Positions 12,520 through 64,000 of a DNA stretch of 64,000 bases are shown in pieces. The position numbers and the translations under genes were made by a program. The DNA lies in IMG/VR virus record IMGVR_UViG_3300017730_000002, positions 32,001-96,000 of that record; one strand, given 5' to 3'. The notes beneath the pieces were generated by a model that saw nothing but the letters and a program-made list of their open reading frames with translations, had not been told where the DNA came from and searched no databases. The stretch's first letter is position 1; each line of letters begins with the position of its first letter. The DNA comes from a virus.

Positions 12520-12939
12520 ATGAAACTTAAATTTGAGTTTAAAGCAGATGTCTATAACGGCATCACAAGACAAGTAGCAAATTTTACAGGTACATTAGTA
12601 TCTATTGCTAAATTACCAATCAAGAATGTCAATAACACAGAGTATTACCCTGCAACTGTTGATATGAAAGATTCTCACGGGAATGTTCGTAAAGGTACAT
12701 CTTGTATGATTTACAAAACATCCTTTGACAAAGGTATGGAGATAGGACAAGACTATCTTGGCTCCGTTACCATTGAATCAGGTAAACAACCACTTATTAA
12801 GCTTACTTCAGGTACAGGCAATGGCACTCGTGCTACTATGGACGACTTTGACTTCCAAGTTGCTCCTGCACCACAACCTGTTGCACAACCTACTCAGGCT
12901 ACTACAGCCACAGAGAGTAACCTAAGTGACATAGGATAG
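12520..12939 (+). CDS. Early hypothetical protein (beta-rich, possible OB-fold) with Pro/Ala/Gln tail
   Basis: 139-aa ORF after motif copy 11. Confidence 0.65.
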   Translation: MKLKFEFKADVYNGITRQVANFTGTLVSIAKLPIKNVNNTEYYPATVDMKDSHGNVRKGTSCMIYKTSFDKGMEIGQDYLGSVTIESGKQPLIKLTSGTGNGTRATMDDFDFQVAPAPQPVAQPTQATTATESNLSDIG

Positions 12940-47000: not shown

Positions 47001-49884
47001 CTGTAACAGTATTTACAATTCTAAATCTTTCTTCATAAAGACTATTAAGCTTTTCTATTACAGGATTATTACTTGACTTGGCCTGAAGTTTTCTTAAATC
47101 ATTTAATATTTGATTTTTATCTTGATAGTATTCGCTAGTATATGCAACCTTGGTATTTTTTTCTAAGAATTTGTTTACTTGCTCATTGAATAATTCAGGA
47201 TTAGATTCTTGTGTAATACCTTCTCCAGCTAATACAACATTTATAAAGTGATTATAGTCATCTTCAAATCTTTGCATATCTGTAGAATACTCATAAAACT
47301 TTTTAGATTCTTTTCTATACTTTCTTCTTACTAGTACTCTTTGAAGTTCTTCACCCTGCTTATACTTACCGTTTATATCTACAAGATTGTAGAGTTCATC
47401 ATACTTTATTTTAGCTTCTTTAGATGCACTAAACTCTAAAAGATCATCGAGATCAGTCCAGGCATCATTTACATTTAATACATTAAGTTCCTCAAGAGCC
47501 TTCTGTCTTTCAACAAATGCTTCTGCAGAAACTTTAGCTGATATAGTTATTTCTCTTTTAGTAGAAGGGTCATATATGGTATTAGGTTGCTCCCATATTT
47601 TTCTAACATTATATACCTCTTGAGTATATGGTCTATGCATATACTTTTCGTGAAAGTCATTAAGCTCCTTAGTAGCCTTTATTATAGCATCTTTGTCCCC
47701 ACTTTTGTGTGCAATTTCTAAGTTATTTTGAAGACGATCTCTATCAAATCTCCAACCTTTAAACTTATCAATTACAGAATAAATTTCATACTCTTCAATT
47801 TCATTAGTATTTGGATTTATTTCAGCTACAGTATCCACAAAAAGCAATGCTTCAGCAACCTGTTTAGGATTAGTTATATCTACACCTGCTGCTTTAAAAA
47901 GAGGATTTAATTTTTCACCAATTCTATTAACTTGATTAAGACTTTGTGTTTCTGATAAAGATAACTTGTTCTTTGTATATCTGTATACAGAACCCAGTAA
48001 GTCATCTACATTACCCAAAGGAGTATACATTGCTCCTATATTTCCAAGATCTTCTGTTCTACCCTCTAAGTAATTTAAAATAGTATCTCTGCTTATCCTT
48101 TTTGCAATATAAGTTTTGATATTGTTAATGATAGGTTTACTTGCTGTGGTTTTCCTTGGTAAATTTAAAGATGAAACACTTCTTACATTTTCATTATCTA
48201 TCTTATTTAAAATATCTTTTACAAAGGCATCTATCTCTTCTTCTGTAAAATTATCTGCTGCCAATAAACGCCTTACTTCTGATTCAAAGTTCCCCCTAAT
48301 ATTTTCAGACATTGCCTCAGTGTTCTCTTCAAAAAATTGCACCGTAAAATCTTTACTAAGAGTACTTACTAACTGTAAGTTATCTTCAATACTTTGTGAT
48401 ATGGCAGCAAGTTTATTCATAAAAGGATTTGATCTATCAGAACTTTTTAATCTTAATCTTGCATTATCTATAAATTGTTTTTCAGCTGCTAAGAGTTTTT
48501 TGAAGTATTGAATTTTTGCAATACCGTCTGTAGATAGATGTCTCTTATCTTTTTCAAGTTCTCTTAATATATTATTAATCTTATTTGAAAAAGTTTCAAT
48601 CTCACTAATACTGTTTATAAGAGCAATAGATCTAGTTCTTAAATCAGACTCTTGTTCTGCTAAACCATCAGCTACTTTATCAAGATTCTCTTCAGATAAT
48701 CTACCATCTTTTGTTTTAAATGGCGCCACATAATCTCTAATATTTTCCAATACAGCCCTACCACCTTCAGCTTCAAGTTCTTCTTTTAACTTTTTAGGGC
48801 TATTTTTTAATACACGTATTTGATACTGCATTTCTTCACCCATTGTATCAATAGTTTCTTGTAAAGCCTTATCAGAAGATTGACTAAGATCCTTTAAAAA
48901 CTGTTCTGTTTCTTTTCTAAAGTCAGCCAAATCAGATTTAATATATTCAAAATCCTCTATTACAAAGTCTTTATTAATCATCATATCAACTAACTCATCA
49001 AGTGTAGTTGACATTTTAAGTTTCCCAAGATTTACTTTTTTTCCAGCCAATGCCCTAACAACTTGTTTTATAGCATAAAGTATTTTCTTTAGTAGTTTTT
49101 GAAACTCTGTATCATTATCTATAACATCATTTATTATTTCATTCCCACCAAGCTCAATTGCTTTTACTAAAACTTCTTCTTTAAATCTATCTGTATTAGG
49201 TTCTAGTTCAGGGTATAAATCTTTAACAGAATTTATTATTGCTTTTCCTTTATCTGTACTCGCTGTCTGATCGTAAAGATTATAAAATAATTTAGCATTC
49301 TGCTTCTGAATGGCTTTCATAAAAGGATGCGCAAATTCATGTAACACATTAGATGAATTGAACTGACCCTCAATAAAATACACTTTATCTCCATAGAAAA
49401 ATGCAGATACACCAGCCTTCAATGGCGTAGGTGAATTTTCTAATAATAGTTCTGCCTCAGTTTGTGTAATAATAACTGAATCTATACCAAATATTTTAGT
49501 AAACTTATCAGATAATGCTTTTGCAATAAGTTTATCTTTCTCTACCCTTAATCTTTCATCAGTAAAAAGATCATCAGTATCATACAAGTATCTATCATTG
49601 TATTCTATACCAGCTCTTCTAGCATCAAGCCTTTGAACTTGTCTTGCTTCTTCTATTTCTAGATTTAGCTCCTCTTCAAAGTATTGATTTACTAAACCTG
49701 GCGATATGTATATATCTCTTTCTACAGTATCACCTAATCTAAATGTCACAACTTCTTCTCCAAATCTTTGATTTATAGTATTAGCTAAAGCTCTAGCATT
49801 TTTAATATTCATACCAAGTCCTGCGCTAGATAATCTATCTACTACATCATAAAGGTTAGATTTTATTTGTTTTCTACAAGGCAT
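44047..49884 (-). CDS. Giant virion cargo/ejection protein (zincin, LysM, C-terminal TM)
   Basis: HEFAH (~49330), LysM-like HTVGEGNTLESIAKQYSIP...LEPGEKLII (~44860-44995), hydrophobic AYLAILGLAAGLLFG. Confidence 0.75.
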   Translation of the reverse strand: MPCRKQIKSNLYDVVDRLSSAGLGMNIKNARALANTINQRFGEEVVTFRLGDTVERDIYISPGLVNQYFEEELNLEIEEARQVQRLDARRAGIEYNDRYLYDTDDLFTDERLRVEKDKLIAKALSDKFTKIFGIDSVIITQTEAELLLENSPTPLKAGVSAFFYGDKVYFIEGQFNSSNVLHEFAHPFMKAIQKQNAKLFYNLYDQTASTDKGKAIINSVKDLYPELEPNTDRFKEEVLVKAIELGGNEIINDVIDNDTEFQKLLKKILYAIKQVVRALAGKKVNLGKLKMSTTLDELVDMMINKDFVIEDFEYIKSDLADFRKETEQFLKDLSQSSDKALQETIDTMGEEMQYQIRVLKNSPKKLKEELEAEGGRAVLENIRDYVAPFKTKDGRLSEENLDKVADGLAEQESDLRTRSIALINSISEIETFSNKINNILRELEKDKRHLSTDGIAKIQYFKKLLAAEKQFIDNARLRLKSSDRSNPFMNKLAAISQSIEDNLQLVSTLSKDFTVQFFEENTEAMSENIRGNFESEVRRLLAADNFTEEEIDAFVKDILNKIDNENVRSVSSLNLPRKTTASKPIINNIKTYIAKRISRDTILNYLEGRTEDLGNIGAMYTPLGNVDDLLGSVYRYTKNKLSLSETQSLNQVNRIGEKLNPLFKAAGVDITNPKQVAEALLFVDTVAEINPNTNEIEEYEIYSVIDKFKGWRFDRDRLQNNLEIAHKSGDKDAIIKATKELNDFHEKYMHRPYTQEVYNVRKIWEQPNTIYDPSTKREITISAKVSAEAFVERQKALEELNVLNVNDAWTDLDDLLEFSASKEAKIKYDELYNLVDINGKYKQGEELQRVLVRRKYRKESKKFYEYSTDMQRFEDDYNHFINVVLAGEGITQESNPELFNEQVNKFLEKNTKVAYTSEYYQDKNQILNDLRKLQAKSSNNPVIEKLNSLYEERFRIVNTVTDKDGEPNGRDLNSIQIERLKTIENEIVAQNLLFDRKTGLSKAESRTLNQLNFKISKKAKLSADELKVFQDLTTRQNEFGMTSIEIGNMRNLYSKLNALRNITPTDNYIAAFNDALEGTGADPVTAETVEDFVLDKVALNKIFNETEGGSVFEEWFYKNHFERDMYDGEKMSPGFVRLKVWSLERPSNKNHYKTTSIKDSEGNTINIQGVPIAKYSTSTIKDKYRTIPMGADRSQYVGTIIDNRGNFLPKEFTGDVINGAFDDKYQNKKFYEMQSKNDAKFKLLQGYKKELLDLQKDAVLSSRMYLDLPRFRQRTNVEAFTSGQTAAKLKAKKEQVSTALEYVSSYVQGKKDDAEDGFNFDESLIYIPTDLEGNRITRVPVRGMYKLSLAETSTDAMRSIWDYLYSLNEQKALMEDEPVMNAILGIISDDENAIKNLNVASRNTGKISSRLNLISKNKGEDKRITALREFIDRTYYGQRVSEFQQNNRPLTKAMRALSGNAARAFFALNPQSSLKNRGGMQFNKAIEAAGGKYLDARTLVRGKYRAAKATWQMGTVGNYARGAKPMDVQISEAFDMAPGKSRTEFGESTTRTLVTDFFDGKWLYSDRKLMEQNSAMELGFGIMYKQMVDVMQPDGTVKQIPYADAWTTDEDGVLKLKEGVDPEYSHVPINHTVGEGNTLESIAKQYSIPVEKLMAKNKIKSKRKLEPGEKLIISKSTQFNNLKLIIADANARLNGITNKIDSPLAEKYLGYSLATFSRRFLTGMVLNRFQFDTAKNNLFGDVYNWNTNELTRGYYIDAIDSLRKMLTTGQYRSKYMTDREKAAWRKIVTETAYLAILGLAAGLLFGYDPGDEDRFKKIRERQEKDYPFLIGWSGNQILYQLIMIQKENRLFLPIWGAKDQLSMIDSSTIMLGPTVVAYVRILNDLYNLATGSEKAYYKQDVGYYDWQKEGSNKIWNHLGQTIGLTGKNLSPMWAIKKNEQFENLR

Positions 49885-49905
49885 AATTCTTTTTTATAAA
49901 TATAA

Positions 49906-52900
49906 TTAAAATCCACAGAAATCATCTGTTCTATCTATTGGAGGTTTACCCTTAGGTCCAAATTCTTTTTTAACATCTTCTTCAAATTTACTTAAGTCTC
50001 TCTGATCCATACGGAGAGTACCATCTGGATTACGTACTACTCTTCCAGATAAATATCCTGGAGGTTGATCACCAGTTGTTGTATCGGTAGTAAAATCAGT
50101 ATTAAGATTTCTTCTAGTTAAAAAGCTATCTGTAAGAATTTGTAGAACTTGTTTATTAGATAAAAGATTTAATAACCACTTGGTAAACTTCTTCCACCAG
50201 TTTAGAGCTTCACCTTTTTGTGCTACTACTTGTTCTCCTATAGCTTGAACTAAAGCTTCTTCCCCACCAAATCTTCTTATTCCTTCCTGAACAAGTTCAT
50301 TGTCTCTAAAGTATGCAATGTAATGATGAGCATACTCATGAGGCAAAGTATCTTGTTTTTGGTTTGCCGCATCAATTAAAACAGTCATAGCTTTTATATT
50401 AGCCTGACCTATAATTTTATCTTTGTAAGTTTGATTTAATAAATATAAATCACTAAATACATTAGTAGTGCTACCATAAACAAGTTTATTTGTTAAACGA
50501 CTGTTTAAATCAGTTAAGTCTGCTAACTTTTGAAAAGGTGCTTCATAACCAGTAAACAAGCTCTCCTGAACTTTATCCCATTGATCTGTAGCAGTCATAG
50601 AAAGCACTCCTTCAGCTATACCATTGTTTAAGTCTTTAAATAACTTACCACTTGATTCTGCAGTTACAGCATTTAAGAACCAACCTGGAACTGGAGCCAT
50701 TATATCTCCTGCTGTATTTATATCTTTATCGTCTGCAGTAAATTCATCTTTATTAGCAAGTACATATTTAACCAAGTCTTGTTTAGCTTTTAATTTTACA
50801 TACTCTTCATTTTTTTTACGTTCAAGTAAGTCATTACTATTATGAAAATAGGTAGGGCTTGTTAGTCCTCGCAAACCATCAGTAATACCATTAGTAGCTA
50901 GGATATCTTCTGCTAAATCACCAAGACCACTTTCTATGGCAGATGATGGTGCAGGTCCGTAATAATGCTCCCAAGACAGCTCAAACTGAGATATCCTTCC
51001 TTTAACAAGATCAGCTTTTCTTTGCTCAGGTGTTTGAAATTGTACTTTAAGTCTTTGTTTTAATAACTCCTTTTCTAAGTTTTCTAAAGCTACATAATCA
51101 ATTCCTTTTTTGATTCTGTCTGTATTATTTTTAAAATCTTTTAAAGCAAGTTGTGCATCAATCCAACGATCATCAGATGATGTGACTTCTTCACCACTAT
51201 AATATGTTACATCTTTATATAACTTTTCCCCAGTAACTGGATCTTTTCCAGCACGTTCTCTTCGTTTAGAAGGTACTCTTTCATATAACTTATCTAGTTT
51301 ACCATTTATAAAGTTATATGTATATATACCTTCTTTTCCTTGTAAGTTAAAATCTCTACGAACACCAGGAAATGTTTTAGTAATGTATGGACTCATACTT
51401 TGACCAATATCAAAATAATTCTGAGCAGTTACAAAAAGTTCAAATAAATCCTTTTTAGTTTTTGTACCATTATCAAATCCTGAAATAGTATCTTTAATCT
51501 TTTTAATTTCTAGATCTGCTAAATACTCAAGATCTTTATCGGCTTGTTCAGCTATTTCAATGTCTTTAATGTATTGAGGATTATTAGGATCCATACCGCT
51601 TTTTTCTCCTTCCTCAAGTCTTTTAAGTTCTTGTTGAGTTGACCAATCAAGAATTTCTTCACCGTAAGTATCATATAATAAATAACCTAATGCATAAACA
51701 TCTAAAGTAACTCTACCTCCATACTCTACGTTTATATACTTATAAGGATCACTCTTTATAGCATTTTCCATTGTAGCTAAAAAAGCTACTTTATTTTTAC
51801 GGCTAAATGCATAAAATTGAGAAGCGGCTTTTTTTAAAGGTGCTGTTAATTCTGCAATAACTTTTTGCGTTGTTTCTTGAGATCTTTTCATCTCCTGATT
51901 GAACACATCTGGACTAGAATCAAATCCAATGGGATCATTTGTAAAATTCAGCTTTATGTTAGGATACTTTTCTCTTAATACAGCTTCAATTTTCTTAGAT
52001 AACTCTTCACTAAATTTAGTATCAAATCCAGTGGTGTCAGGACCTAAAATTATTTCAGGGTTTCTACTCACAAAACTTTCAAAACCTTTTAAGTCAGCTT
52101 CATTACCTAGTATATGTATTTGATCTATATCATATACCACATAAATATCTGTAGGAGTTGGATCCATTGTATTTTTTATAATAGAAGAATCCTTATTAGT
52201 TTCTTTATCTTCTTTTATAATAGCAGCAAATGACTTATCTCTTCTAGTTTGTTCTTTTTGCGTATAAGTACCAGGATTTTTCATATCCAAAATAACTTTA
52301 ACTAAATTTCCATCAAATGCAGAAAAACCTTCTTCTCTTGTTTTTTTTATAAACTCAGAAGCTTCTTTAAATGTTAAGTTCTTTCTTATTCTTTCATCAG
52401 ATTGAAAAGCATCTCCAGTTTGTTTAGGTTTTAAATAGACAGCATATTTAATCTTGTTATCATAAAATTCATTTGCTTTTGCAAGTCTACCTTTTTTAAA
52501 TGCATATAATGTAAAAGAACCACCGTCATCATCCATTACATTTCGAGGCTTTTCAAAAAATTCCTCTTGCTGTTCTAAAGTTGATTTATCATATAAAGTC
52601 TTTAATATACCATTAGCATCAATAGTATCTTGTTCTATGTATGTACTAAAAGGGTCCGCTGTTAAATATTCTAAAGCTGTTGAAGGGTTATCTGCAAAAA
52701 AGAACCCTTCTTGTGCAGATGAAGATCTAGTATAAGATCCAAGTTTTTCTTTTGAAAATGGTTTAAAATTTTCATCAGTACCATGATATAAAATATCTTT
52801 TACTTGACTATTTGGGAATATAGATTGTATGTATTCAGCATATTGTTCTTTTGTACCAATAGCAGCAAGCTCAGGATTTTCAGAAAACAGCACATCTATT

Positions 52901-55900
52901 TCAGGATTAACTTGATCAGTAACCATTAGCTTACTAAACTCGTCATTGAAGATAATGTTAGATGGTATAGGTCCTGCAGATGCAAACATCTCTGCCATCT
53001 CTAAAGGACTATATCCATTTAGATTTCTACCTTGTGTTGTGTATAAAACATATGCATTTCTACTAGGATTTTTTGTATAGTAGTCATACATATTTTTTAT
53101 TTGATTTATAATCTCATCTTTAGGAACCTGTCTAGCAGGATCATCCATAGGAAGTTGCCAATCAGTTACGGTTTGTATTGCATAAGATGAACCTTCCGTA
53201 CCTGTTTGAAATCCTCTAGGTTGGCCTACTATAACTCTAAGACCCTTACCTTCAATCTTTTGTTTTTTATATGCTCTAGAATCATTAGCATATAGAATAC
53301 CAGCTGTACCTCCACCGTGGAATCCATCTTGATTAGATCCAAATACAGTATCTTCATTACCTTTTAGGTTTTTAATATCAACAAGACCTGTATAAGTTTT
53401 AACCTTAGCAGGCGGTTGAGTAGATTTATCTATGTTTCCACTTTTTACAGCATTATGTCTAAGTGTAATACTAAATCTTTTAGACTTATTTCCTTCAGCA
53501 TCTATACCATGTTTATAATTGATTTGCCCATCTTTACCCATTATTAAACCTAGGCCAGATTTCATAGATATTTTATATTCTTTTTTACCCTTTAGAATCA
53601 TAGTTCTTTCATCACCAAAACTTATAGTTACTACAGAAGGATTTAACTTACCTTTATTATTTAATATAGGCTCGTTGTCTGTATGGAATCCTATTTTTTG
53701 ACTACCATCCTTATATTCATTTATAAGAACCATATCAAAGTATCCATCCTCAAAACCTAAATCTCTAGTTATTTTAGAGACCAACCTTTGAAGTTCAACA
53801 CTTCCTGTATTAGCAGGCCTAGTTGTCCCTGAATAAGAATAACTTTCATCAGAAAAATACATACTGCGTCTACCCCTACCAAATTTATCAGAAGACTTAT
53901 GCTCAGATTCATAAGTTTGATCATACAATGTTTCTATAAAATCAAAAACTTTTTTAGACTCTTCGTTTGTAAAAACTTGTTTAGTAAAAACTTCGGCATC
54001 TTCTACATTAACACTTTTTAAACCCTTGGTATTTACTAAACCATTAGTAAGTAAAGTTGCAATGTCTAAATCACTACTTTGATCTGTTGGTTGAACAGGA
54101 GCTATAGGAGCACCATATTCTTTAGGATCTACCACTAAGTCTATAAACTTATCGGTTGACATTTTACCAAATTTTAAAAGCTTCTTAAATACAAATTCAA
54201 AAGTAGCATCATTGCTTTGAGCATCTGTGAAATTCTGACCAGCTACATTCATTATATTTACAAAGTTCTCATAAGGAAGAACATCAATCATTGAATCTCT
54301 ATTATATCCACCTGTACCATTTTGATATATAGATATCAAAGGTAACCTCGCAAATAATCTAGACAATCTTAAGTTCTCAGCTCTATCAGCTACTTTCTTT
54401 ACAGCAGGGTCTGCAAGATCTTTTAAGTTTTGGTAATAGATATCGCCAAGACCTTCTGTCTTTTTTACTTGAGATATGTTTCGTAATGATAAAACTTTTA
54501 TACCAACATTATCACCAAACTGTTTAGGAATATAAAGCTGCTCAAGTATAGGATACTTTTGCTTTAAATCTGCATTTCTGTCTATACTGTCAATTACAGT
54601 TTGTGAATAAGAATAAGCTCCTGTTCCCATAATTACAGATCTATTATAAGAATCCAGAAGCGCTTCTTTATTCAAGAAGTATTCATAGGCTTGTTTTGTA
54701 GCATTCTCTTCAGTAAAATTAAACTGAGTTTTTAAAGTATTCTTAACAGCAATAAATTCTTTGTCACTAGATATATTTTCTAGTGGTATTCTAGATCTTA
54801 AATACTCTCTTGCTATTACATACTTTTTATACTGTATAACATTATCAAATATATCTTTATTAAAAGTTCTTAGACCTTCTTTAGGATATGTTATAGAATT
54901 TTTTAGATAAGCTTTGTTAAAAAAGTCTCTTTCTATTTTAGCATTATCTACATATATAACATCTGACTGTTCTGTCATATTAGCCATTGCACCTCTTTCT
55001 ACACCTTCTCTGTTTATAATCTTACGGCCCATGTATGTTTCAGGAGTAGATGTTAGCTTACCATTAGAATCCACAAAACCTGTCTGATAGTTTTGGAATA
55101 TATAATCCATCAAACTATCTTTAAATCTTGTTATAAGTAAAGACTTCTCATCTCTGGTTGCTCTTATAAAAGGAAGTTCTCTCTTAAGAAAATCATTAAC
55201 TCTGTCATTATTTCTAAATTGAAACACAGGAGTTACAATATCTTTAATAAGATCACCTATCCTGAAGCTACTTAATATAGATTCTTCTCTTAGTTTTCTT
55301 ACAAGCTGTTGATCCACCTTTGTTAGATCAGCTAAACCTTCATAATTAGCTTCTTTAAGAATTATTTCTTGTAGTGTTCTTGATGTAGTTGTATCAGGAT
55401 TAGACTGAAGCTTTAAACTTGTCAAACCTTTTAACTGCTTTTCAATTTCTAAGAAATGAAGAAACATATTTAATCCTACGTTATTTGCTCTAGGATCATT
55501 TGAAATAGTATCTCTATTTACAGAAGCCATATCACTAGTAGTAAAGACATCCTTATCTCCCATTCTTCTACTTAAAACATCATAGAAGTTTTTATTAGTT
55601 ATATACTGGTATACCGTAATATCTTGATAATCTTCTGTTGTAAACTCAAGTAAGCTACCCTTTCTATTTTGTTCAAGAGCTATTTTTTCAATAGTTCTAC
55701 CTGCAGCTTCGTATTTTACAAACTGGCGCTCAACACCTTCTGTTGAATACTCGCTACCCAGCTTTCTCTGTTGAGCAGCGTATTCTATTACATAAGGGTT
55801 AGATACAAACTGTACTGCTGACTTAATTGGAACACCAGCTTTTATTAAGTACAAAAGTATCGGAGCTACCTCTCTATTACCTTGAATGTTAAACACCCAA

Positions 55901-58900
55901 GGATCCTTTTCAATATCTACAAATCCATTTAACAATTGATTATAAAGCTCATTAATGTTATTACCATCTTTTGCTGTAACATCCGATATTGATATAGATC
56001 CATCAGGAAACTCATTATGTGGTAAGAATAGTCTCATATTATAATCACCATCTGTAAGTGTCCAGCCGCTTTTTATAAAATTAGGAAGACTTGTCTCTTT
56101 AATTACTTCTCTTTTGCCTGCTTTATCTACTACAGTAACGGCTTTAACATATCTCTTAGTTGCATTATCATATATTTCTGGAGAGTATTTTTTAGGCATC
56201 TTACCTCCTTGGCTGTTTATTATAGGACTTAATGCATTTTCTATAGCTACAATACCAAGTACTCTTTTACCTATCATGTTCTCAGTATGCTTCTGTAAAT
56301 TATAGATAGGCTCGATTGTTCTTGTTGGACTTATAACCTTTGTCTCTTTGCCGTTTTTATCTACTTTAATTTTGACACCTTGACTTCTGTTAGCGTATCT
56401 ATCATAAGTTGCTACATCATCTCCAATTTCATCAGCTATCTCTTCTTTTAATAAATAAGTAGCATTAGGTTTTACTAAGTTAGCATAGTTAGATTTTAGA
56501 CTAAGTATCTCAGCCATGTTAAACATTATATCATTTTGTAAAGCAAGCTTCTTAGTATTAAATATCTTTTTCTGAGTAGCTTCAGTAGACATGTTTGCCA
56601 TCTCAATAGTCTTTTCTACAGAAGAATTATATTCAGTCAAAGACCCATCAGAATTTATGTTAGGAAAAAATATATTAAGCTTATCAATATCAAAGTCAGA
56701 TCCTGATTTAGCAACTATCTCTGTTGGAAGTATTATAATGTTACCCGCACTTGCTGGAAGAAATTCATGAACCTCACCAAATTCCATATAGTTAATACCT
56801 CCAACAGGAATACGTGTACCTACTATGGTAACCTTTTTTCTATTTTCACCATTATTAGCATCTAACCACTTTTCGTCCTTTATAAGCTTATTTAAATTAG
56901 CTAAACTAGCCTCTTCATCTAAAACTCTAGTTGTATTTTCTACACCAGAATCATCTATATATGTTTCTTCTCTATATACAGCAACGTCATCAAGTCTTAA
57001 AAGATTTTTAAAACTACCTTGCATCGCAATAGCTACTTTCATACCTGCAGTACTACCATCTTCTGGTTTAGTTCTGTAAAAAGGTAAATCGTTTGTACCT
57101 CGATATTTTTGAATGTCTGCTGTACTTGCTGTTTTGTACTCAGCTTGATTCCACATACCGTTGGTCAAAGCACTAGAAACTTGAACTAAAGACTCACCAT
57201 TAATTCTTTGATTAATAATTCTTTTTTGAATTAGATTAATTATCATTGACTCAATATCACCAGCTTTAAAGTGATATGATAAATCAGTTTCTAAAGTTCC
57301 ATTTACATTCTTTCCTACAAATTCTATTTGATGTTCAGGGACATTTCTTCTGCCTAATTCTCTTTGAACTAAGCTTAAGAAGTTATTAATATTACCTATA
57401 TACTTATCGCCTTCTTTTCTATATCCTATTTCAGACAAAAGCTCTTCTTCTAAAATCTTTTCATAATCACTTATCAATTTAGCGTATCTTTCTGCAGCAT
57501 CCTTAGCATCAGGATCTGTAATAATACCTCTATTATAGAGATCTTTTAAGATCATTTTTCTAAACTGAGTAGAAAATATAGTTTGTTTTTTAAACTTCTT
57601 TGGAACGCCTGTTACATTTTTAAGATACTCTACGTAGATAGTATTCATAGTAAAGTCAATATCACCCTTTAGTGTATCTTGCTCTTTATTCTCAGCATCA
57701 AAAATTATATCAGCGCCTTCTGGATTAGATGCTATATGTGAAACTTTAGAACCTGTCTTAAATAAAGAATAGTGAATACTTTTATCCATCATTTGTTCAT
57801 GAAGACTTTCTAATTCACCAGTCATTACCCCAGGTATCAATGGCATAAGTGAAAATTTATGCATTGAATTAACAGGTAACTTAGCTTGTTTTATACTACC
57901 TGAATAGAATAACTTATATGGCGGAAAGAATTCAGTAACTTCATTTATACCCACATATTCTCCTCTAGAAATTTTTTGAAACAAAGCTTCTTGCTCATAG
58001 CTCCAATCATTTTCTAAAAATCTTAAAGATCTGTATGCATCAAAAGTAATATAACCTTGGCCATCAGCCTCTTCCATTCCTTTATAAACACTGAGATCTC
58101 TCTTTACAAGTTCATCTACTCTAGCTTTATCAAAGTTTTTACTATAGAATTCTCTGAGACCCTTTTCTATCTGATCTAAATATTCACTGTCTCTTTCAAT
58201 GTCTTTCATAATAGCAGTATTTAAACTACCATCATACCTAAGAGTCTTCTTACCATTTTGCTCTGCATAAGAAGTCTTTTTTAAATGACCATTAACGAAT
58301 GTCTGAGCTGCTTTATCTACTCTAAAAGTTTTACCACCAGACTTAGTACCAGGAGATCTTTTTGAAAGCTCTTCTTTCTCATGATTGTATTGTGATAAAT
58401 CACCTTCAAGTAAATTTGCAGTTTCAAAATTATGAATCCATGAATTATACACATAAGCCGCAGCTAATAATTTCTGTTGTCCAAGTGGATCTTCAGTAAT
58501 TTTATTAACCTCTTCTAATAAGTTCTTACTTAAATAGTCATTTTCTGCAATTTTTAACCGAACCTCAGTTGCTAACTTATTAAAATACTCATTTATTTCA
58601 CCTTTTATCTTAGCTTGTAATGTGATGTTTTCATTTTCTAAATAAGATTCTAAATCAAAAAACTTACCTTCATTTTTATCAATGATGTCATATATTTCTT
58701 GCTTAGTATCATCAGTTAATACGTCATCAAATATTGTAAATGACTCACCTGCCATTCTACCATTAGTAAGTTTATTATTAAATCCTACATAGTTTTTAAA
58801 CTCTGGGTTACTCTTAAACTTATGGATCCTGTTAGCTTCAGAAGCTAAGTAGCCCAATATAAACTCATTGTTTATTAACTCTTGAGTACCTCGATAATCA

Positions 58901-61900
58901 CTAAACTTGTCTATATCAATGTATAAATTAGAGTTCTTTTTATTAAGATCAAATCCTAACTTACTTTTAATAGACCCTGTAAACTTTAAACCAAATGCAG
59001 ACTTCTTAGATGCAGCTCTAATAAACTCTTGTGTTCCACCTAGCAGCATCATGTGAAGCTCTTGTGAGAACTTAGATCCTTCATCTAAGTCAGCGGTATT
59101 AGTACCTCCACCTGTTTCTTTAGTAGTACCAGAATCTAAGAATAATTCAAGATTAGCATTTTGTATACGCTTGCCGCTTGTTGCAGTAGAGTTTAAAGAA
59201 TACATACTTCTTAAAAGTACTGACTTAGATGTAAAAGGATTTATGTCAGGACTAAGATAATTCATTGGATTATTTTCACTATCTATAAGATTTTGAAAAT
59301 CTTCTGCATCATTTATTTTGGATGTTCTTGTAGATACTGTATTATTTTCTATATACTCATATACTATATTTCCTTCTGCATTCTGTACACCAAATATATT
59401 AGCCGCTTCTCCAAATCTTCCTTGTAAACGTGCTATTCTATCTATCTGAGTTTTTTGAGACGTAGCAGATGTAGACGTAATGCTTTTATCTAAAGGTCTT
59501 TGAAGTGTCTTAATGGGATCCTGCAGTAAGTCAGATAATCTATCAGTTTGTGTTTTACTTAAAGGCGCATCCTGAGTGCTTACTTTATCATATACATTTT
59601 TAAGATTACCATAGATATATTCTAAACCATAAAATCTTTGACCCTCTGATGAAGTTAATTCGGTTCTTATGGTATCAATATTATCTACATATAAACCAAT
59701 TGCTCTAAGAAATTCTACAGACTTAGACGTATCAAACTTGCCATTTTTACCAAAGTCTTGGATAACCTTTTCTAAATTTAACTCTGTTATTTTTGAAGAT
59801 GGGTTCAGTGTTGTGTATGGGTTATCCATATCACTCATGTACTGATTTCTAAACGTATTAATAACATTTCTAGCATCAGCAGATGCATTATTTACTTTGG
59901 CTGTATCATCCTTAAATAAAGTTAGCTGTATATAAGGTACTCTTGACTTATTAAAATCCTGCCAGAAAGATGTAGTAGCTTTAAAGTCATAAATATTATT
60001 AGCTGCTATACTTGGGTTGGGAAGCTTAGTTGAAGTCAATTGTTTAAAAGGTGCATACATGTCACCTGCCTTAACCAGTTTATCATACATTACTTGAGGA
60101 TCAGATTCACTTGCAATAGTTCTTACAACATTATTCCACGTTAACCTAAAGTCAGCAAGCTTTTTAAATCCTAAAGAGTTTAACTTAGTCTTGCCACTCT
60201 TGTCTGTGTCATGCAGACTTTTAAGCATGTATATTGTTTCCTTACCTGCAAACTCTAATAATGATTTATCTCCAACTTTTTTATCAGCAAATCTTTCACC
60301 AACTTCTTCAGCTGTATTTTCATCCTTAGTAAGTTCATCTTCTATATATGTATCTGCTAGAATCTTATATGTACTGTTTTTCAAATGGAAACCTACCGTA
60401 CCATCTGTTGCTGTGCCATAGTTTTCTACAGCAGCTGTAAGTACTCTTATGTTTTCATCAAGCTGATCTACTACAAATTCATTCTCCTCGGCAACTTCTA
60501 CTCTTTGTGTTTTAAATTCGTTTAACTTTTCCTCAAGTCTCTCTTTTATTACATCATATAAAATAGACTTTTTACCAGGATCCAAAACTAACTTAAGAGC
60601 CATGCCTTTATTATTTTCAGAGTCAGTGCTTCTTAAATCCATAGTAACTTCATCAACTATATCAGATATAATTGAATCCATACTATCTTTAACTAAAAGA
60701 GATTCGCTTCTTGTTAAAGCTTGTTTATCGGTACCAGGTTCTGTAATACCTATGTTTCTTTCTAACTCATCAAACTGTACATTCTCAATGGTAGGTGTAT
60801 ATTTATTGAGACCTTTGTTATAATAAAGAGCTTCAAACATTTCTTGAACCATTTGAATTTCCATTACATTAGATGCATATCCTACACCAAACAACTTTTT
60901 TAAGAAATTTAATATTCTTCTAAAGAAAGTATTTCTTTTAGGAGATCCTTTTTTAGCTTTTGGATTTTTAGCATAAGTTCTAAACTCTTCTGCAAGAATT
61001 TCTTCTATTTCCTGAACACTATAATTTTTACCACCTTTTAAAGATTTTTTAACTTCTCTATATAGAGCTCTTTTTTCTTTAGGTGATAAAAACAATTGTG
61101 TAAATCCATGCCATGCTTCGTGATATAAATCAACTGATGAACCTTTCTTAGCGATCTGTATTGTACCATACTTACCTGCAAGAATACCGCCATATGAAAT
61201 AAACTTAGCAAATGCATCTGAGTTAACTATATTAACTCCTACCTCTAAATCTAAATATTTACTAAGGTCAGATTTATTCCACCAATCAATTGCTTTTTTA
61301 TTTTGCTCAGATGTACCTTTATCTTGAGTTAATGTTCCAGATCTTTCTAAACCAAATCGTTTAGCTATACCTCTTTCATAAGGTGTATTTGTTCCTGCTT
61401 TAGTTGTAGCATCATCTATTTGTTCTTCCTTAGATTTAGTCTGTCTATTTTTATACAGCTCTTTATAGTAAGGTACTCTACTATCTTCCTGAGCATAAAA
61501 ATCAGTTTCTTGAACATTGCCAATAACTTCCCCAGTAGTACTATCCACTACAGATAAGAGTTCGGGTATAAAAATTTTAGTCTTGTTATCAATTTTTTCT
61601 TCTATTACAAATGTTATAGGCGCACCTACCATAAAGGGAATTGTGACATTTCCATATTTATATTTATCAGCAAGATAGATTTTCATTGTTTGACCATCCA
61701 CAGGTGATTGAAATAGTATATATGCATAAGGACCTTTACCACCAGGTCTTTCTCCATTTTCTACTGCAGATATAGTAGTTGTAGTTACAGTACCAGCATT
61801 CTTTACAAAAGCTGCAAGAGCATCTTTTCTTTTTCTAATTTCAGATGGTTGCTTTTCTTTAGCATCTTCTAAAGATTTAGTTACTTTACTGGGTATAGCA

Positions 61901-63624
61901 AAGTTCATATATTGATTAAACACCTTTTCAGCATTAGCTGAAGATAAATCAATTTTACCACCTTTTAAGGAAGCAAGATAATCAGTGTAAGATATGCCAG
62001 ACTTTTGAAGTTCGCCTGTTTCAATATTGTAATCTACAAAAGCATCACTTGCTAAGTTACTCTCATTAAATATTATACTTATAGGATACTTTACGTTTTT
62101 AAACTCACTAGCATTCATGAGTGTATCAACTATAATAGATTTAGCTTCTGGACTTTTTAAATCGAGAGGCTTTGATTTCTCTGTAGGATTCTTTTGAAAA
62201 GTATCTTCAAAATAAGAAAACTGAATTGTTTTATTATTATCTAGATATTTTATACCATGTCTTCTTTGTTTTCTACTTTTAGTATAAGGAGATAAGAATT
62301 GCTTTATGTAAGCTGATCTTTCATTATAATCTAACTTATCATTTATTAATACCTCAGCAATTTTTTCAGCAGTAGCTTGATCAAGAGCAGGTCTATTTAC
62401 AGTAAACTGCTCACCTCTTATATTTATTGTAGACTTGTATACATTCTGTGATTTTAATGGTGTTATTGTTCTTATTGAATCCTGTAAACCAAACTTAGAA
62501 AGAGTTCCTAATGTTAAACTTTTTTGTGTATATGCGGCCTCTACACCTGCAGAGAAACCTACAAGAGCTAATGATTTTACATCACCATTAAGAATGCTTT
62601 TATTTAAATCGTATAAGCTTTTAAGCTGCTCTTGAAATATTTTTTCAGCAACTTCTTGAGTTACTTCTTGATCAGCCATAATCCTAGCAACGTTATTTGC
62701 CAATACTTCGTATCCATAAAGATTTACAGGTTTATACTTACCACCTTTCTTTACCACGTTTCTCATCATTTGATAGACAATCTGCCCACCCGTTTGAGTT
62801 ATGTTTCCGTTATTATCAAATTTAATAGGGTTACCTTCTTTATCAGCTAATACAGTTAAGATAACTTCATTTGGGTTTATTACATTTGCCTTAGACTTTC
62901 CTGCTCTTATTATAGCAGAAGCCTTCAATAAAAAGTTACCAGTTATCTTATCTAGATCCTTAACATCCATATCAGATAACTTCATAGGCTTTAGGGTAAC
63001 GTCTACTCCTTGATAAGATATAGTACCAGTTACACCTTCTTCCTGAACATCTTCAGCTTGTTGTATATTGTTAAATACAGTATAAAAAACTTTTCTTTCT
63101 TCTGAACTTTTTTGAATTAATGTTTCATCAAGTTTATTAGGATCAAGAGTTTCAAATTGTTGAAACGTTGTGCTAAATACATTAGTTGGCTCAAGCCTAA
63201 CAGGCTCAAGTCTATCTACAGATGATGGAGGTATCTTAGACGTAGTCAACTCTGTTTGAAACACAGCTTCTTTTAAAACGCTTTGACTTTGCTGTGGTGC
63301 AAAATGTTTAAGTACATTTCTTAGGCCAACGTTAGGATCAGCAAAAAGTTTATTAAGCTTAAGTATTGGATCTACATTTAGCTCAACATCATTAATAAAG
63401 TTTGGTAAGGTTGAATAAGCTTTAAACACCATTAGTGGTACAGGCTGTAAGAATTTCACAGCAGTATCAATATCTTTTGCTTTTGTAATCTTTTTAAAAA
63501 GATCTTTCATATATGCATCAGCATCAAATGGAGTATTTTCCGATTGAGCTTGCTTCATCTTTTTAGTTACAGCAGTATATATCTTTTCTAATTGTATGGG
63601 GCTAACAGCACAAATTATTTTCAT
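49906..63624 (-). CDS. Giant virion RNA polymerase polyprotein (crAss-like two-barrel RNAP) with accessory domains
   Basis: GSDFDIDK catalytic loop (~56690), DGQG, RIP motifs; HEAWH and HEYAH zincins; AlkB-like and ART-like domains. Confidence 0.85.
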   Translation of the reverse strand: MKIICAVSPIQLEKIYTAVTKKMKQAQSENTPFDADAYMKDLFKKITKAKDIDTAVKFLQPVPLMVFKAYSTLPNFINDVELNVDPILKLNKLFADPNVGLRNVLKHFAPQQSQSVLKEAVFQTELTTSKIPPSSVDRLEPVRLEPTNVFSTTFQQFETLDPNKLDETLIQKSSEERKVFYTVFNNIQQAEDVQEEGVTGTISYQGVDVTLKPMKLSDMDVKDLDKITGNFLLKASAIIRAGKSKANVINPNEVILTVLADKEGNPIKFDNNGNITQTGGQIVYQMMRNVVKKGGKYKPVNLYGYEVLANNVARIMADQEVTQEVAEKIFQEQLKSLYDLNKSILNGDVKSLALVGFSAGVEAAYTQKSLTLGTLSKFGLQDSIRTITPLKSQNVYKSTINIRGEQFTVNRPALDQATAEKIAEVLINDKLDYNERSAYIKQFLSPYTKSRKQRRHGIKYLDNNKTIQFSYFEDTFQKNPTEKSKPLDLKSPEAKSIIVDTLMNASEFKNVKYPISIIFNESNLASDAFVDYNIETGELQKSGISYTDYLASLKGGKIDLSSANAEKVFNQYMNFAIPSKVTKSLEDAKEKQPSEIRKRKDALAAFVKNAGTVTTTTISAVENGERPGGKGPYAYILFQSPVDGQTMKIYLADKYKYGNVTIPFMVGAPITFVIEEKIDNKTKIFIPELLSVVDSTTGEVIGNVQETDFYAQEDSRVPYYKELYKNRQTKSKEEQIDDATTKAGTNTPYERGIAKRFGLERSGTLTQDKGTSEQNKKAIDWWNKSDLSKYLDLEVGVNIVNSDAFAKFISYGGILAGKYGTIQIAKKGSSVDLYHEAWHGFTQLFLSPKEKRALYREVKKSLKGGKNYSVQEIEEILAEEFRTYAKNPKAKKGSPKRNTFFRRILNFLKKLFGVGYASNVMEIQMVQEMFEALYYNKGLNKYTPTIENVQFDELERNIGITEPGTDKQALTRSESLLVKDSMDSIISDIVDEVTMDLRSTDSENNKGMALKLVLDPGKKSILYDVIKERLEEKLNEFKTQRVEVAEENEFVVDQLDENIRVLTAAVENYGTATDGTVGFHLKNSTYKILADTYIEDELTKDENTAEEVGERFADKKVGDKSLLEFAGKETIYMLKSLHDTDKSGKTKLNSLGFKKLADFRLTWNNVVRTIASESDPQVMYDKLVKAGDMYAPFKQLTSTKLPNPSIAANNIYDFKATTSFWQDFNKSRVPYIQLTLFKDDTAKVNNASADARNVINTFRNQYMSDMDNPYTTLNPSSKITELNLEKVIQDFGKNGKFDTSKSVEFLRAIGLYVDNIDTIRTELTSSEGQRFYGLEYIYGNLKNVYDKVSTQDAPLSKTQTDRLSDLLQDPIKTLQRPLDKSITSTSATSQKTQIDRIARLQGRFGEAANIFGVQNAEGNIVYEYIENNTVSTRTSKINDAEDFQNLIDSENNPMNYLSPDINPFTSKSVLLRSMYSLNSTATSGKRIQNANLELFLDSGTTKETGGGTNTADLDEGSKFSQELHMMLLGGTQEFIRAASKKSAFGLKFTGSIKSKLGFDLNKKNSNLYIDIDKFSDYRGTQELINNEFILGYLASEANRIHKFKSNPEFKNYVGFNNKLTNGRMAGESFTIFDDVLTDDTKQEIYDIIDKNEGKFFDLESYLENENITLQAKIKGEINEYFNKLATEVRLKIAENDYLSKNLLEEVNKITEDPLGQQKLLAAAYVYNSWIHNFETANLLEGDLSQYNHEKEELSKRSPGTKSGGKTFRVDKAAQTFVNGHLKKTSYAEQNGKKTLRYDGSLNTAIMKDIERDSEYLDQIEKGLREFYSKNFDKARVDELVKRDLSVYKGMEEADGQGYITFDAYRSLRFLENDWSYEQEALFQKISRGEYVGINEVTEFFPPYKLFYSGSIKQAKLPVNSMHKFSLMPLIPGVMTGELESLHEQMMDKSIHYSLFKTGSKVSHIASNPEGADIIFDAENKEQDTLKGDIDFTMNTIYVEYLKNVTGVPKKFKKQTIFSTQFRKMILKDLYNRGIITDPDAKDAAERYAKLISDYEKILEEELLSEIGYRKEGDKYIGNINNFLSLVQRELGRRNVPEHQIEFVGKNVNGTLETDLSYHFKAGDIESMIINLIQKRIINQRINGESLVQVSSALTNGMWNQAEYKTASTADIQKYRGTNDLPFYRTKPEDGSTAGMKVAIAMQGSFKNLLRLDDVAVYREETYIDDSGVENTTRVLDEEASLANLNKLIKDEKWLDANNGENRKKVTIVGTRIPVGGINYMEFGEVHEFLPASAGNIIILPTEIVAKSGSDFDIDKLNIFFPNINSDGSLTEYNSSVEKTIEMANMSTEATQKKIFNTKKLALQNDIMFNMAEILSLKSNYANLVKPNATYLLKEEIADEIGDDVATYDRYANRSQGVKIKVDKNGKETKVISPTRTIEPIYNLQKHTENMIGKRVLGIVAIENALSPIINSQGGKMPKKYSPEIYDNATKRYVKAVTVVDKAGKREVIKETSLPNFIKSGWTLTDGDYNMRLFLPHNEFPDGSISISDVTAKDGNNINELYNQLLNGFVDIEKDPWVFNIQGNREVAPILLYLIKAGVPIKSAVQFVSNPYVIEYAAQQRKLGSEYSTEGVERQFVKYEAAGRTIEKIALEQNRKGSLLEFTTEDYQDITVYQYITNKNFYDVLSRRMGDKDVFTTSDMASVNRDTISNDPRANNVGLNMFLHFLEIEKQLKGLTSLKLQSNPDTTTSRTLQEIILKEANYEGLADLTKVDQQLVRKLREESILSSFRIGDLIKDIVTPVFQFRNNDRVNDFLKRELPFIRATRDEKSLLITRFKDSLMDYIFQNYQTGFVDSNGKLTSTPETYMGRKIINREGVERGAMANMTEQSDVIYVDNAKIERDFFNKAYLKNSITYPKEGLRTFNKDIFDNVIQYKKYVIAREYLRSRIPLENISSDKEFIAVKNTLKTQFNFTEENATKQAYEYFLNKEALLDSYNRSVIMGTGAYSYSQTVIDSIDRNADLKQKYPILEQLYIPKQFGDNVGIKVLSLRNISQVKKTEGLGDIYYQNLKDLADPAVKKVADRAENLRLSRLFARLPLISIYQNGTGGYNRDSMIDVLPYENFVNIMNVAGQNFTDAQSNDATFEFVFKKLLKFGKMSTDKFIDLVVDPKEYGAPIAPVQPTDQSSDLDIATLLTNGLVNTKGLKSVNVEDAEVFTKQVFTNEESKKVFDFIETLYDQTYESEHKSSDKFGRGRRSMYFSDESYSYSGTTRPANTGSVELQRLVSKITRDLGFEDGYFDMVLINEYKDGSQKIGFHTDNEPILNNKGKLNPSVVTISFGDERTMILKGKKEYKISMKSGLGLIMGKDGQINYKHGIDAEGNKSKRFSITLRHNAVKSGNIDKSTQPPAKVKTYTGLVDIKNLKGNEDTVFGSNQDGFHGGGTAGILYANDSRAYKKQKIEGKGLRVIVGQPRGFQTGTEGSSYAIQTVTDWQLPMDDPARQVPKDEIINQIKNMYDYYTKNPSRNAYVLYTTQGRNLNGYSPLEMAEMFASAGPIPSNIIFNDEFSKLMVTDQVNPEIDVLFSENPELAAIGTKEQYAEYIQSIFPNSQVKDILYHGTDENFKPFSKEKLGSYTRSSSAQEGFFFADNPSTALEYLTADPFSTYIEQDTIDANGILKTLYDKSTLEQQEEFFEKPRNVMDDDGGSFTLYAFKKGRLAKANEFYDNKIKYAVYLKPKQTGDAFQSDERIRKNLTFKEASEFIKKTREEGFSAFDGNLVKVILDMKNPGTYTQKEQTRRDKSFAAIIKEDKETNKDSSIIKNTMDPTPTDIYVVYDIDQIHILGNEADLKGFESFVSRNPEIILGPDTTGFDTKFSEELSKKIEAVLREKYPNIKLNFTNDPIGFDSSPDVFNQEMKRSQETTQKVIAELTAPLKKAASQFYAFSRKNKVAFLATMENAIKSDPYKYINVEYGGRVTLDVYALGYLLYDTYGEEILDWSTQQELKRLEEGEKSGMDPNNPQYIKDIEIAEQADKDLEYLADLEIKKIKDTISGFDNGTKTKKDLFELFVTAQNYFDIGQSMSPYITKTFPGVRRDFNLQGKEGIYTYNFINGKLDKLYERVPSKRRERAGKDPVTGEKLYKDVTYYSGEEVTSSDDRWIDAQLALKDFKNNTDRIKKGIDYVALENLEKELLKQRLKVQFQTPEQRKADLVKGRISQFELSWEHYYGPAPSSAIESGLGDLAEDILATNGITDGLRGLTSPTYFHNSNDLLERKKNEEYVKLKAKQDLVKYVLANKDEFTADDKDINTAGDIMAPVPGWFLNAVTAESSGKLFKDLNNGIAEGVLSMTATDQWDKVQESLFTGYEAPFQKLADLTDLNSRLTNKLVYGSTTNVFSDLYLLNQTYKDKIIGQANIKAMTVLIDAANQKQDTLPHEYAHHYIAYFRDNELVQEGIRRFGGEEALVQAIGEQVVAQKGEALNWWKKFTKWLLNLLSNKQVLQILTDSFLTRRNLNTDFTTDTTTGDQPPGYLSGRVVRNPDGTLRMDQRDLSKFEEDVKKEFGPKGKPPIDRTDDFCGF

Positions 63625-63627
63625 GTC

Positions 63628-64000
63628 TTAACAGTCTAGGTCATCTAATAAATTATCTTCAGCATCTTCTGCTGAAATATTAGAATCATTTATTTCTTTT
63701 AATTTAGCATCATTTGCAAGAAGCTCTGATGTAGCAGTTGTTGTCTCTTTACCAAAGTTTTCTTCTTCTTTAGTTACATTTTGTTCAAAAGACTTTGGAT
63801 CATTTAACGCATCATTTGATAAATAGTTATCATTTATTTGATCAAGAGTTAACGTCATAACTGAACCATCGTTAGATTTAACTGTAATTTTATTACCATC
63901 TATTTTTGAAACTTTCACAATACCATCTTTTTCTACAAATATATCACCTTTGGATTTACCTTTAGTTTTTATTACATCTAATTTAGCAATTACTTCGCTA
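63628..64000 (-). CDS. C-terminus of another large cargo protein (truncated by window)
   Basis: Frame is open to the window end; ends ...LLDDLDC*. Confidence 0.7.
   Translation of the reverse strand, partial: SEVIAKLDVIKTKGKSKGDIFVEKDGIVKVSKIDGNKITVKSNDGSVMTLTLDQINDNYLSNDALNDPKSFEQNVTKEEENFGKETTTATSELLANDAKLKEINDSNISAEDAEDNLLDDLDC

Follow-up and report, generated by a model that had tools for sequence, protein, structure and literature searches.

The closest described counterpart of the proteins considered here comes from the cyanopodophage A4 (Anabaena phage A-4L; PNAS 2025; PDB 9K2V and 9K3A), in which cryo-electron microscopy revealed that Cys1715 of gp27 and Cys5 of gp26 are joined by a disulfide and that the C-terminal helix of gp27 is inserted in gp26 (PMC12002296). 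Both proteins are folded in the pre-ejectosome, a five-fold symmetric core wrapped by DNA, and the bond was treated as a local stabilizer, with no general rule, link to gene fusion or reductive release being stated (PMC12002296). In the Schitoviridae, cysteine (Cys) suppression is conserved in the ejection proteins and was ascribed to their passage through the periplasm (PMC11445570). Among crassviruses, gp47, gp49 and gp50 of crAss001 were found in the virion by mass spectrometry and placed in a cargo zone of the capsid (PMC10172136), and the RNA polymerase (RNAP) of phi14:2 is packaged in the virion, enters the cell and transcribes the early genes (bioRxiv 10.1101/2020.03.07.982082). How podophages deliver a megadalton cargo that includes a whole RNAP in working order is an open question, and the crAss001 atlas could not resolve these cargo proteins. 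Here the analysis concerns three adjoining minus-strand genes, A, B and C, which occupy the right end of a 64,000-nucleotide (nt) stretch of viral DNA (hereafter the window; bases 32001–96000 of the single 109,286-bp contig of IMG/VR record IMGVR_UViG_3300017730_000002) and encode giant cargo-type proteins with Cys only at their chain ends.

Protein A, the gene of which is cut by the window edge but complete on the contig (95628–101939; 2103 amino acids, aa), has its sole Cys as the last residue (TGT codon at 63631–63633 of the window). Protein B (4572 aa) has Cys only at residues 5 (MKIIC) and 4570 (...DDFCGF), with TGT codons at 63610–63612 and 49915–49917, respectively, and protein C (1945 aa) has a single Cys at residue 3 (MPC; TGT codon at 49876–49878). 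The translations agree with the original prediction, which had reported two Cys in the RNAP protein, at residue 5 and third from the end, a single one at residue 3 and none at the C-terminus of the 1945-aa protein, and a Cys closing the truncated upstream protein, with no internal Cys in any of the three. On the full contig the pattern became stronger, as full-length A has no other Cys and protein X (1057 aa), a cargo-like protein preceding A, has none at all. By comparison, the 51 other open reading frames (ORFs) of the window total 10,887 aa, of which 133 are Cys (1.22%); among them are those for a DNA polymerase, a primase, helicases and an exonuclease. This is in line with the earlier statement that cytoplasmic proteins use Cys freely. 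At this background rate about 118 Cys would be expected in the 9677 aa of X, A, B and C together, against 4 observed (Poisson log10 P about −44), and, given the Cys count of each protein, the probability that every one of them lies no more than 5 residues from the terminus at which it was observed is about 7e-12; chance or composition is thereby ruled out as the cause of the pattern. Outer structural proteins of the same genome are Cys-rich (for example, 51 Cys in 734 aa and 21 Cys in 1779 aa), the portal has 2 Cys and the major head protein none; Cys depletion is specific to the internal cargo proteins and not general to virion proteins. No signal peptide or lipobox was found before the N-terminal Cys, which stand at residues 3–6 after the start Met with no hydrophobic leader.

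The arrangement resembles that of A4, in the genome of which gp27 (1717 aa) has its sole Cys at 1715 and gp26 (1114 aa) at 5. In both phages adjacent internal proteins are poor in Cys, the upstream giant protein of a junction carries a Cys at its C-terminal end (third from the C-terminus in A4) and the next protein carries one near its start (residue 5 in A4). A4 differs in having one such junction, no three-protein chain and no RNAP, and in belonging to the family Saffermanviridae. The near-absence of Cys along the cargo chains (0.04–0.05% versus the 1.22% background) is of the type known from the Schitoviridae, where the giant virion RNAP and ejection proteins (gp50 of N4; gp71, gp72 and gp73 of DEV) are likewise Cys-suppressed. 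Those proteins, however, are essentially devoid of Cys, termini included, whereas the crassvirus cargo keeps strictly conserved terminal Cys.

Conservation was followed in two independent sets, one of about 270 database homologs (120 of A at 30–100% identity, 32 of B and 120 of C at 23–91% identity) and one of about 160 IMG/VR loci. In the first set, counting Cys within the first or last ten residues for A and C, a C-terminal Cys was found in 117 of 120 A homologs (the sole Cys in 114) and an N-terminal one in none, while C homologs showed the reverse, with an N-terminal Cys in 113/120 and a C-terminal Cys in 0/120. B homologs carried both, at the N-terminus in 24/32 and at the C-terminus in 31/32, and the overall Cys frequency in the homologs of the three proteins was about 0.05% over about 630,000 aa. 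In the IMG/VR loci, where proteins were assigned to X, A, B or C by blastp, all 75 complete copies of X were free of Cys, a C-terminal Cys was present in A (76/76) and B (64/64), and both Cys of the B|C junction were present in 56 of 57 distinct cases. Every apparent exception in these loci was traced to a start-codon call, a frameshift-split gene or a lost stop. Specifically, two B proteins seemingly lacking the N-terminal Cys had their start called 12 codons too far upstream of the true start (MKVTC), one C homolog (L057:8862-9700) was split by a frameshift into a 128-aa N-terminal piece beginning MAC and a remainder in another frame, and one A (L145) had lost its stop codon, leaving the Cys 11 residues from the end. 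The exception P0023 is probably a truncated gene call on a 12.6-kb contig. In alignments of 32 homologs each, no column other than the terminal Cys was invariant among the last 250 residues of A (21% mean identity), and Cys 5 was one of three invariant columns in the first 300 aa of B. The distance from the chain end varies (1–3 residues from the end of A, 1–4 from the end of B and residue 3–6 of B and C), and both TGT and TGC are used at the terminal sites of relatives, which argues that selection acts on the amino acid. The terminal Cys, which the original prediction had proposed to count across crassvirus homologs, were conserved in both data sets.

Cultured crassviruses encode homologous proteins that obey the same rule. 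In phi14:2 (gp78-gp77-gp76 in GenBank numbering, the RNAP being “gp66” of Drobysheva et al., PDB 6VR4), gp78 (1797 aa) ends in its sole Cys, the RNAP gp77 (2180 aa) has Cys at 3 and 2179 only and gp76 (1421 aa) at 3 only. In crAss001 the sole Cys of gp47 is third from the end, gp49 has Cys 5 only and gp50 has Cys at 5, at 1334 and ninth from the end; gp47 lies on the strand opposite gp50 and the terminal Cys pair is still kept. DAC15 (gp61-gp63-gp62) shows the same terminal arrangement. The window differs from these phages in that B is about twice as long as their RNAPs, carrying an AlkB and other added domains, and in that the A|B break falls elsewhere in the domain series. Literature found on the RNAP cargo block of phi14:2, crAss001 and DAC15 makes no mention of Cys or disulfides in these proteins, and no paper on a terminal Cys rule, a three-protein disulfide chain or a tie to gene fusion was found for crassvirus cargo in a search of incomplete coverage, with most subscription journals outside it. 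A lone Cys is also present in p-crAssphage gp47 (L167:5588-8161; a gp45-like cargo protein of 857 aa), where it is second from the end, and, similarly, in crAss002 gp30, where it is eighth from the end. Some smaller cargo proteins contain close Cys pairs, namely crAss001 gp45 (390/398; L006:6988-9516), DAC15 gp59 (211/219 and 273/281; L169:39020-41518) and phi14:2 gp80 (369/378; L166:8986-10248), which could form short local loops.

The terminal Cys further covary with gene fusion, which is the main test of the pairing partners. Where A and B are fused, an N-terminal Cys is missing from the joint polypeptide and one remains at its C-terminus, and the protein that follows retains its Cys at 3–5; such cases are cr50_1, cr4_1, cr10_1, six metagenomic proteins (P0025, P0027, P0028, P0029, P0030 and P0032) and Fpv1 gp33, the last being classed as an A+B fusion from its length and the RNAP core at residues 2733–3587 only, with no A-like part shown by BLAST. 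Where B and C are fused (p-crAssphage gp44, crAss002 gp33 and cr8_1), the N-terminal Cys is kept, the C-terminal one is absent and A keeps its C-terminal Cys. Exactly one junction's Cys pair is therefore lost per fusion, an outcome expected from a clasp across each break and not from a nucleotide signal, nor from pairing within homodimers or with outside partners. In cr108_1, the gene pair 606/607 is interrupted. In crAss002 gp33 (L004:17385-17500) an internal Met gives MSC..., matching the N-terminus of p-crAssphage gp44, and the annotated start is probably 32 codons too early. In cr10_1 (MT774382; L171, about 24745 onward), an unannotated ORF starting MKIIC directly follows gp_19819 and represents the C-like protein expected there.

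The break itself also moves between lineages. The C-terminal zincin domain of crAss001 gp47 (residues 2097–2203; L006:11120-18145) aligns to residues 782–884 of window B, while the PD-(D/E)XK nuclease domain carried by A aligns to the same domain of gp47. The Cys is thus placed at polypeptide ends and not at a homologous site, and, as the zincin domain lies on opposite sides of the A|B break in the two phages, the cargo block behaves as one series of domains that is cut variously by lineage.

A complex of adjacent termini, also proposed as a check in the original prediction, was modeled for the A|B junction using the last 250 aa of A and the first 300 aa of B, each with 32 paired homologs. The score was 0.82 (0.82, 0.80 and 0.84 in three runs) compared with 0.00 for the best of 3 controls. 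This mark was reached by 58/80 solved complexes and 2/110 mismatched pairs, rates that are a rough guide here since own alignments were used. The runs agreed in at least 44% of contacts, with a predicted local distance difference test (pLDDT) value of at least 63 for the partners. The predicted interface comprised about the last 50 residues of A, including the fragment 247–250 (250 being the Cys), and residues 2–25 and 42–105 of B, including Cys 5, so that both Cys fall within it. The score supports binding of the A tail to the B head, without showing it. Searched with Foldseek and VIA-align, the 300 N-terminal residues of B as modeled by AlphaFold2 (pLDDT 79) matched only generic helical bundles (Z at most 6.2); as no solved look-alike of the B head was found, the score is unlikely to stem from a structure already known to the predictor.

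Taken together, the best-supported reading, with a probability of about 0.68, is a head-to-tail linkage of A, B and C through their terminal Cys. The underlying pairing logic, of the A C-terminus with the B N-terminus and of the B C-terminus with the C N-terminus, is strongly supported. The C-terminal helix of each cargo protein would dock on the N-terminal domain of the next, and the Cys lying 1–4 residues from the C-terminus would form an inter-protein disulfide with the Cys at residue 3–6 of the following protein, tying A, B and C into one covalent unit of 8620 residues. Disulfides do occur in crAss001 virions, many of them in the tail (PMC10172136). With the clasps at the very ends, the linked proteins would stay topologically linear, as in a polyprotein. 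They could then leave the capsid one after another, and the reducing host cytoplasm would undo the clasps; selection would act against internal Cys, thereby preventing incorrect bonds and bonds that block unfolding. For crassvirus particles we infer the disulfide, the ordered exit through the tail and the cytoplasmic release alike. In AB-type toxins, an interchain disulfide keeps the enzyme chain attached to its partner while the membrane is crossed, and the bond is reduced once the cytosol of the target is reached; this is an analogy only, the proteins being unrelated and involving no phage, capsid or head-to-tail geometry. The original prediction had proposed a disulfide chain of this kind between unfolded cargo proteins. 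Its pairing scheme is supported by the conservation of the Cys, the loss of one pair per fusion, the predicted A–B interface and the A4 precedent. The unfolded state in the virion, on the other hand, is not supported: A4 gp26 and gp27 are folded in the pre-ejectosome, and the crAss001 authors predict that the cargo is helical and folded, with no more than partial unfolding as it exits (PMC10172136). As for the proposed exclusion of internal Cys, it holds in the window and is relaxed in gut crassviruses.

Several points weigh against the head-to-tail linkage. Neither blastp nor hhalign matched the junction domains of A and B to A4 gp27 and gp26, and A4 gp26 was also absent from the fold matches of the B N-terminal model, though the proteins may be distantly related. 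With no detectable homology, the A4 precedent is one of analogy. The cytoplasm in which the phages assemble is reducing and the habitat of gut crassviruses is anoxic, conditions that bear on whether and when the bond would form. The complex prediction gives no Cys–Cys distance and covers one of the two junctions, A|B. Internal Cys are tolerated in gut lineages (1 in crAss001 gp50, 3 in DAC15 gp63 and 14 in the cr8_1 fusion), and with up to 15 Cys in one 4422-aa fusion their exclusion is not an absolute requirement. Finally, the C-terminal Cys of p-crAssphage gp47 has no N-terminal Cys partner in the neighboring proteins.

The least unlikely of the alternatives is that the disulfides are real but structural in function, locking a folded internal core of the pre-ejectosome type and securing 1:1:1 co-packaging, with no ordered thread and no need for release by cytoplasmic reduction. 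The gp27–gp26 bond of A4 lies within just such a core, the predicted A–B contact is a folded helix-in-domain interface, and genes separated by so few nucleotides are consistent with equimolar synthesis. A structural lock, however, would be free to occupy any part of the interface, and this explanation accounts neither for the position of the Cys, which in all lineages is no more than a few residues from a chain end, nor for a break that moves along the domain series with the Cys following it; the two functions are in any case compatible. Pairing of like with like (A–A, B–B or C–C), or with other virion proteins such as the portal or tail instead of the neighboring cargo, is improbable. A and C, each with one free Cys, would be able to homodimerize, tail proteins of crAss001 use many inter-subunit disulfides (PMC10172136), and the partnerless Cys of p-crAssphage gp47 would be accommodated. 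Such pairing does not predict that a fusion should abolish the two Cys of its own junction together without affecting those of the other, nor that a heterotypic interface between the A tail and the B head, with controls at 0.00, should hold both Cys-bearing ends; in A4, moreover, the heterotypic bond was seen directly.

Slightly less probable still is a role of the terminal thiols in another junction chemistry, such as bridging a metal ion, or in redox sensing, with no stable disulfide. Two docked thiols could bind Zn or Fe, and an anoxic gut may disfavor disulfides, but a site with just two ligands is weak, the surroundings of the Cys show no conserved His, Cys or Asp, and A4 shows a disulfide. 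A single four-Cys site joining all termini was also considered and is excluded, since the fused forms work with two Cys only. The view that the Cys have no role at the protein level is close to refuted; on this view they would be by-products of composition, of signals for translational coupling in the DNA where genes meet, or of lipidation or processing of the N-terminus. It can draw on the closely abutting genes, 3 to 21 nt apart, yet TGT and TGC both occur, the distance of the Cys from the chain ends is not constant, gp47 and gp50 of crAss001 keep the pair on opposite strands, and both the 1.22% Cys background and the lack of a signal peptide or lipobox speak against it.

If the head-to-tail linkage is retained, a tentative extension is that in crassviruses, and possibly also in further podophages including A4, the injected proteins are strung into one redox-cleavable pseudo-polyprotein, which might ensure 1:1:1 packing, one linear thread and a fixed order, and which host reductants might dismantle, thereby switching on the RNAP and effectors. 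Should this be true, fission and fusion along the cargo block would be nearly neutral, which would explain the wandering break points. A clasp of two Cys at every cargo break is in itself a concrete hypothesis that is cheaply testable in the cultured phages crAss001, DAC15 and phi14:2, and it offers a handle for locating cargo termini in maps. For annotation, the terminal Cys provide a rule by which start codons can be corrected, cargo genes that are fused or split can be spotted and ejected proteins can be recognized with no data beyond the sequence. What had been one structural finding in a cyanophage is in this way extended to a rule across an abundant phage order. Terminal-only Cys in internal proteins may reach beyond crassviruses and A4: in phage T7 (L175), the sole Cys of gp14 is residue 2, and neither gp15 nor the first 1135 residues of gp16 contain any.

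The features of the locus are given in Table 1. The original prediction had taken the 4572-aa protein to be an RNAP, and this was borne out by the DFDID motif, which has also been described for phi14:2 gp66 (bioRxiv 10.1101/2020.03.07.982082), and by a tblastn match of B residues 1652–2316 to the “putative RNAP catalytic subunit” of crAss002. Homologs of B also align to phi14:2 gp77 and crAss001 gp50, and B is, by these sequence criteria, an RNAP of the crAss-type two-barrel kind. The RNAP fusion tails of p-crAssphage and crAss002 align to the C-like proteins crAss001 gp49 and phi14:2 gp76. In a phmmer search of A, B and C against PDB sequences, only the LysM domain was matched. The gap between the A stop and the B start is 3 nt (63625–63627), and the B|C spacer has a median of 3 nt across 57 relatives; genes placed so close together are compatible with coupled translation in roughly equimolar amounts. 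All three proteins are probably packed in the virion and injected, with the RNAP in the middle.

Table 1. Features of the cargo genes in the window (aa, amino acids; nt, nucleotides; residue numbers refer to the protein named).
Feature	Position	Strand	Basis or remark
Protein A, end part (last 123 codons and stop)	63628..63999	(-)	Truncated by window edge; ends ...DLDC
Protein B, 4572 aa, virion-type two-barrel RNA polymerase with added effector domains	49906..63624	(-)	
HEAWH zincin motif, B residue 835	61108..61122	(-)	Motif reading
DFDID RNAP catalytic motif, B residues 2310-2314	56683..56697	(-)	Motif reading
AlkB-type 2OG-Fe(II) oxygenase domain, B residues 3222-3389	53458..53961	(-)	PF13532, E 2e-17
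Weak ART-PolyVal (ADP-ribosyltransferase) match, B residues 3611-3654	52663..52794	(-)	E 1e-4; 23.4 bits, under the Pfam cut-off of 31.2 bits
Spacer from B stop to C start, 21 nt	49885..49905	(-)	Sequence reading
Protein C, 1945 aa	44047..49884	(-)	HEFAH zincin motif at residue 182; LysM domain 1631-1673

In addition to the shared domain series, a segment of B recurs in a different giant protein. P0005 (5608 aa), which has helicase domains, contains near its N-terminus a 650-aa stretch with 92% identity to window B residues 3856–4508, its identity being otherwise 24–43%, which suggests, on sequence grounds, a recent shuffling of an effector cassette between cargo proteins. Outside the window, at contig positions 12701–16668 on the minus strand, two unannotated proteins of the structural module show the reverse of the cargo pattern, being very rich in Cys (18 in 576 aa and 51 in 734 aa), and may be disulfide-stabilized parts of the outer tail or fibers.

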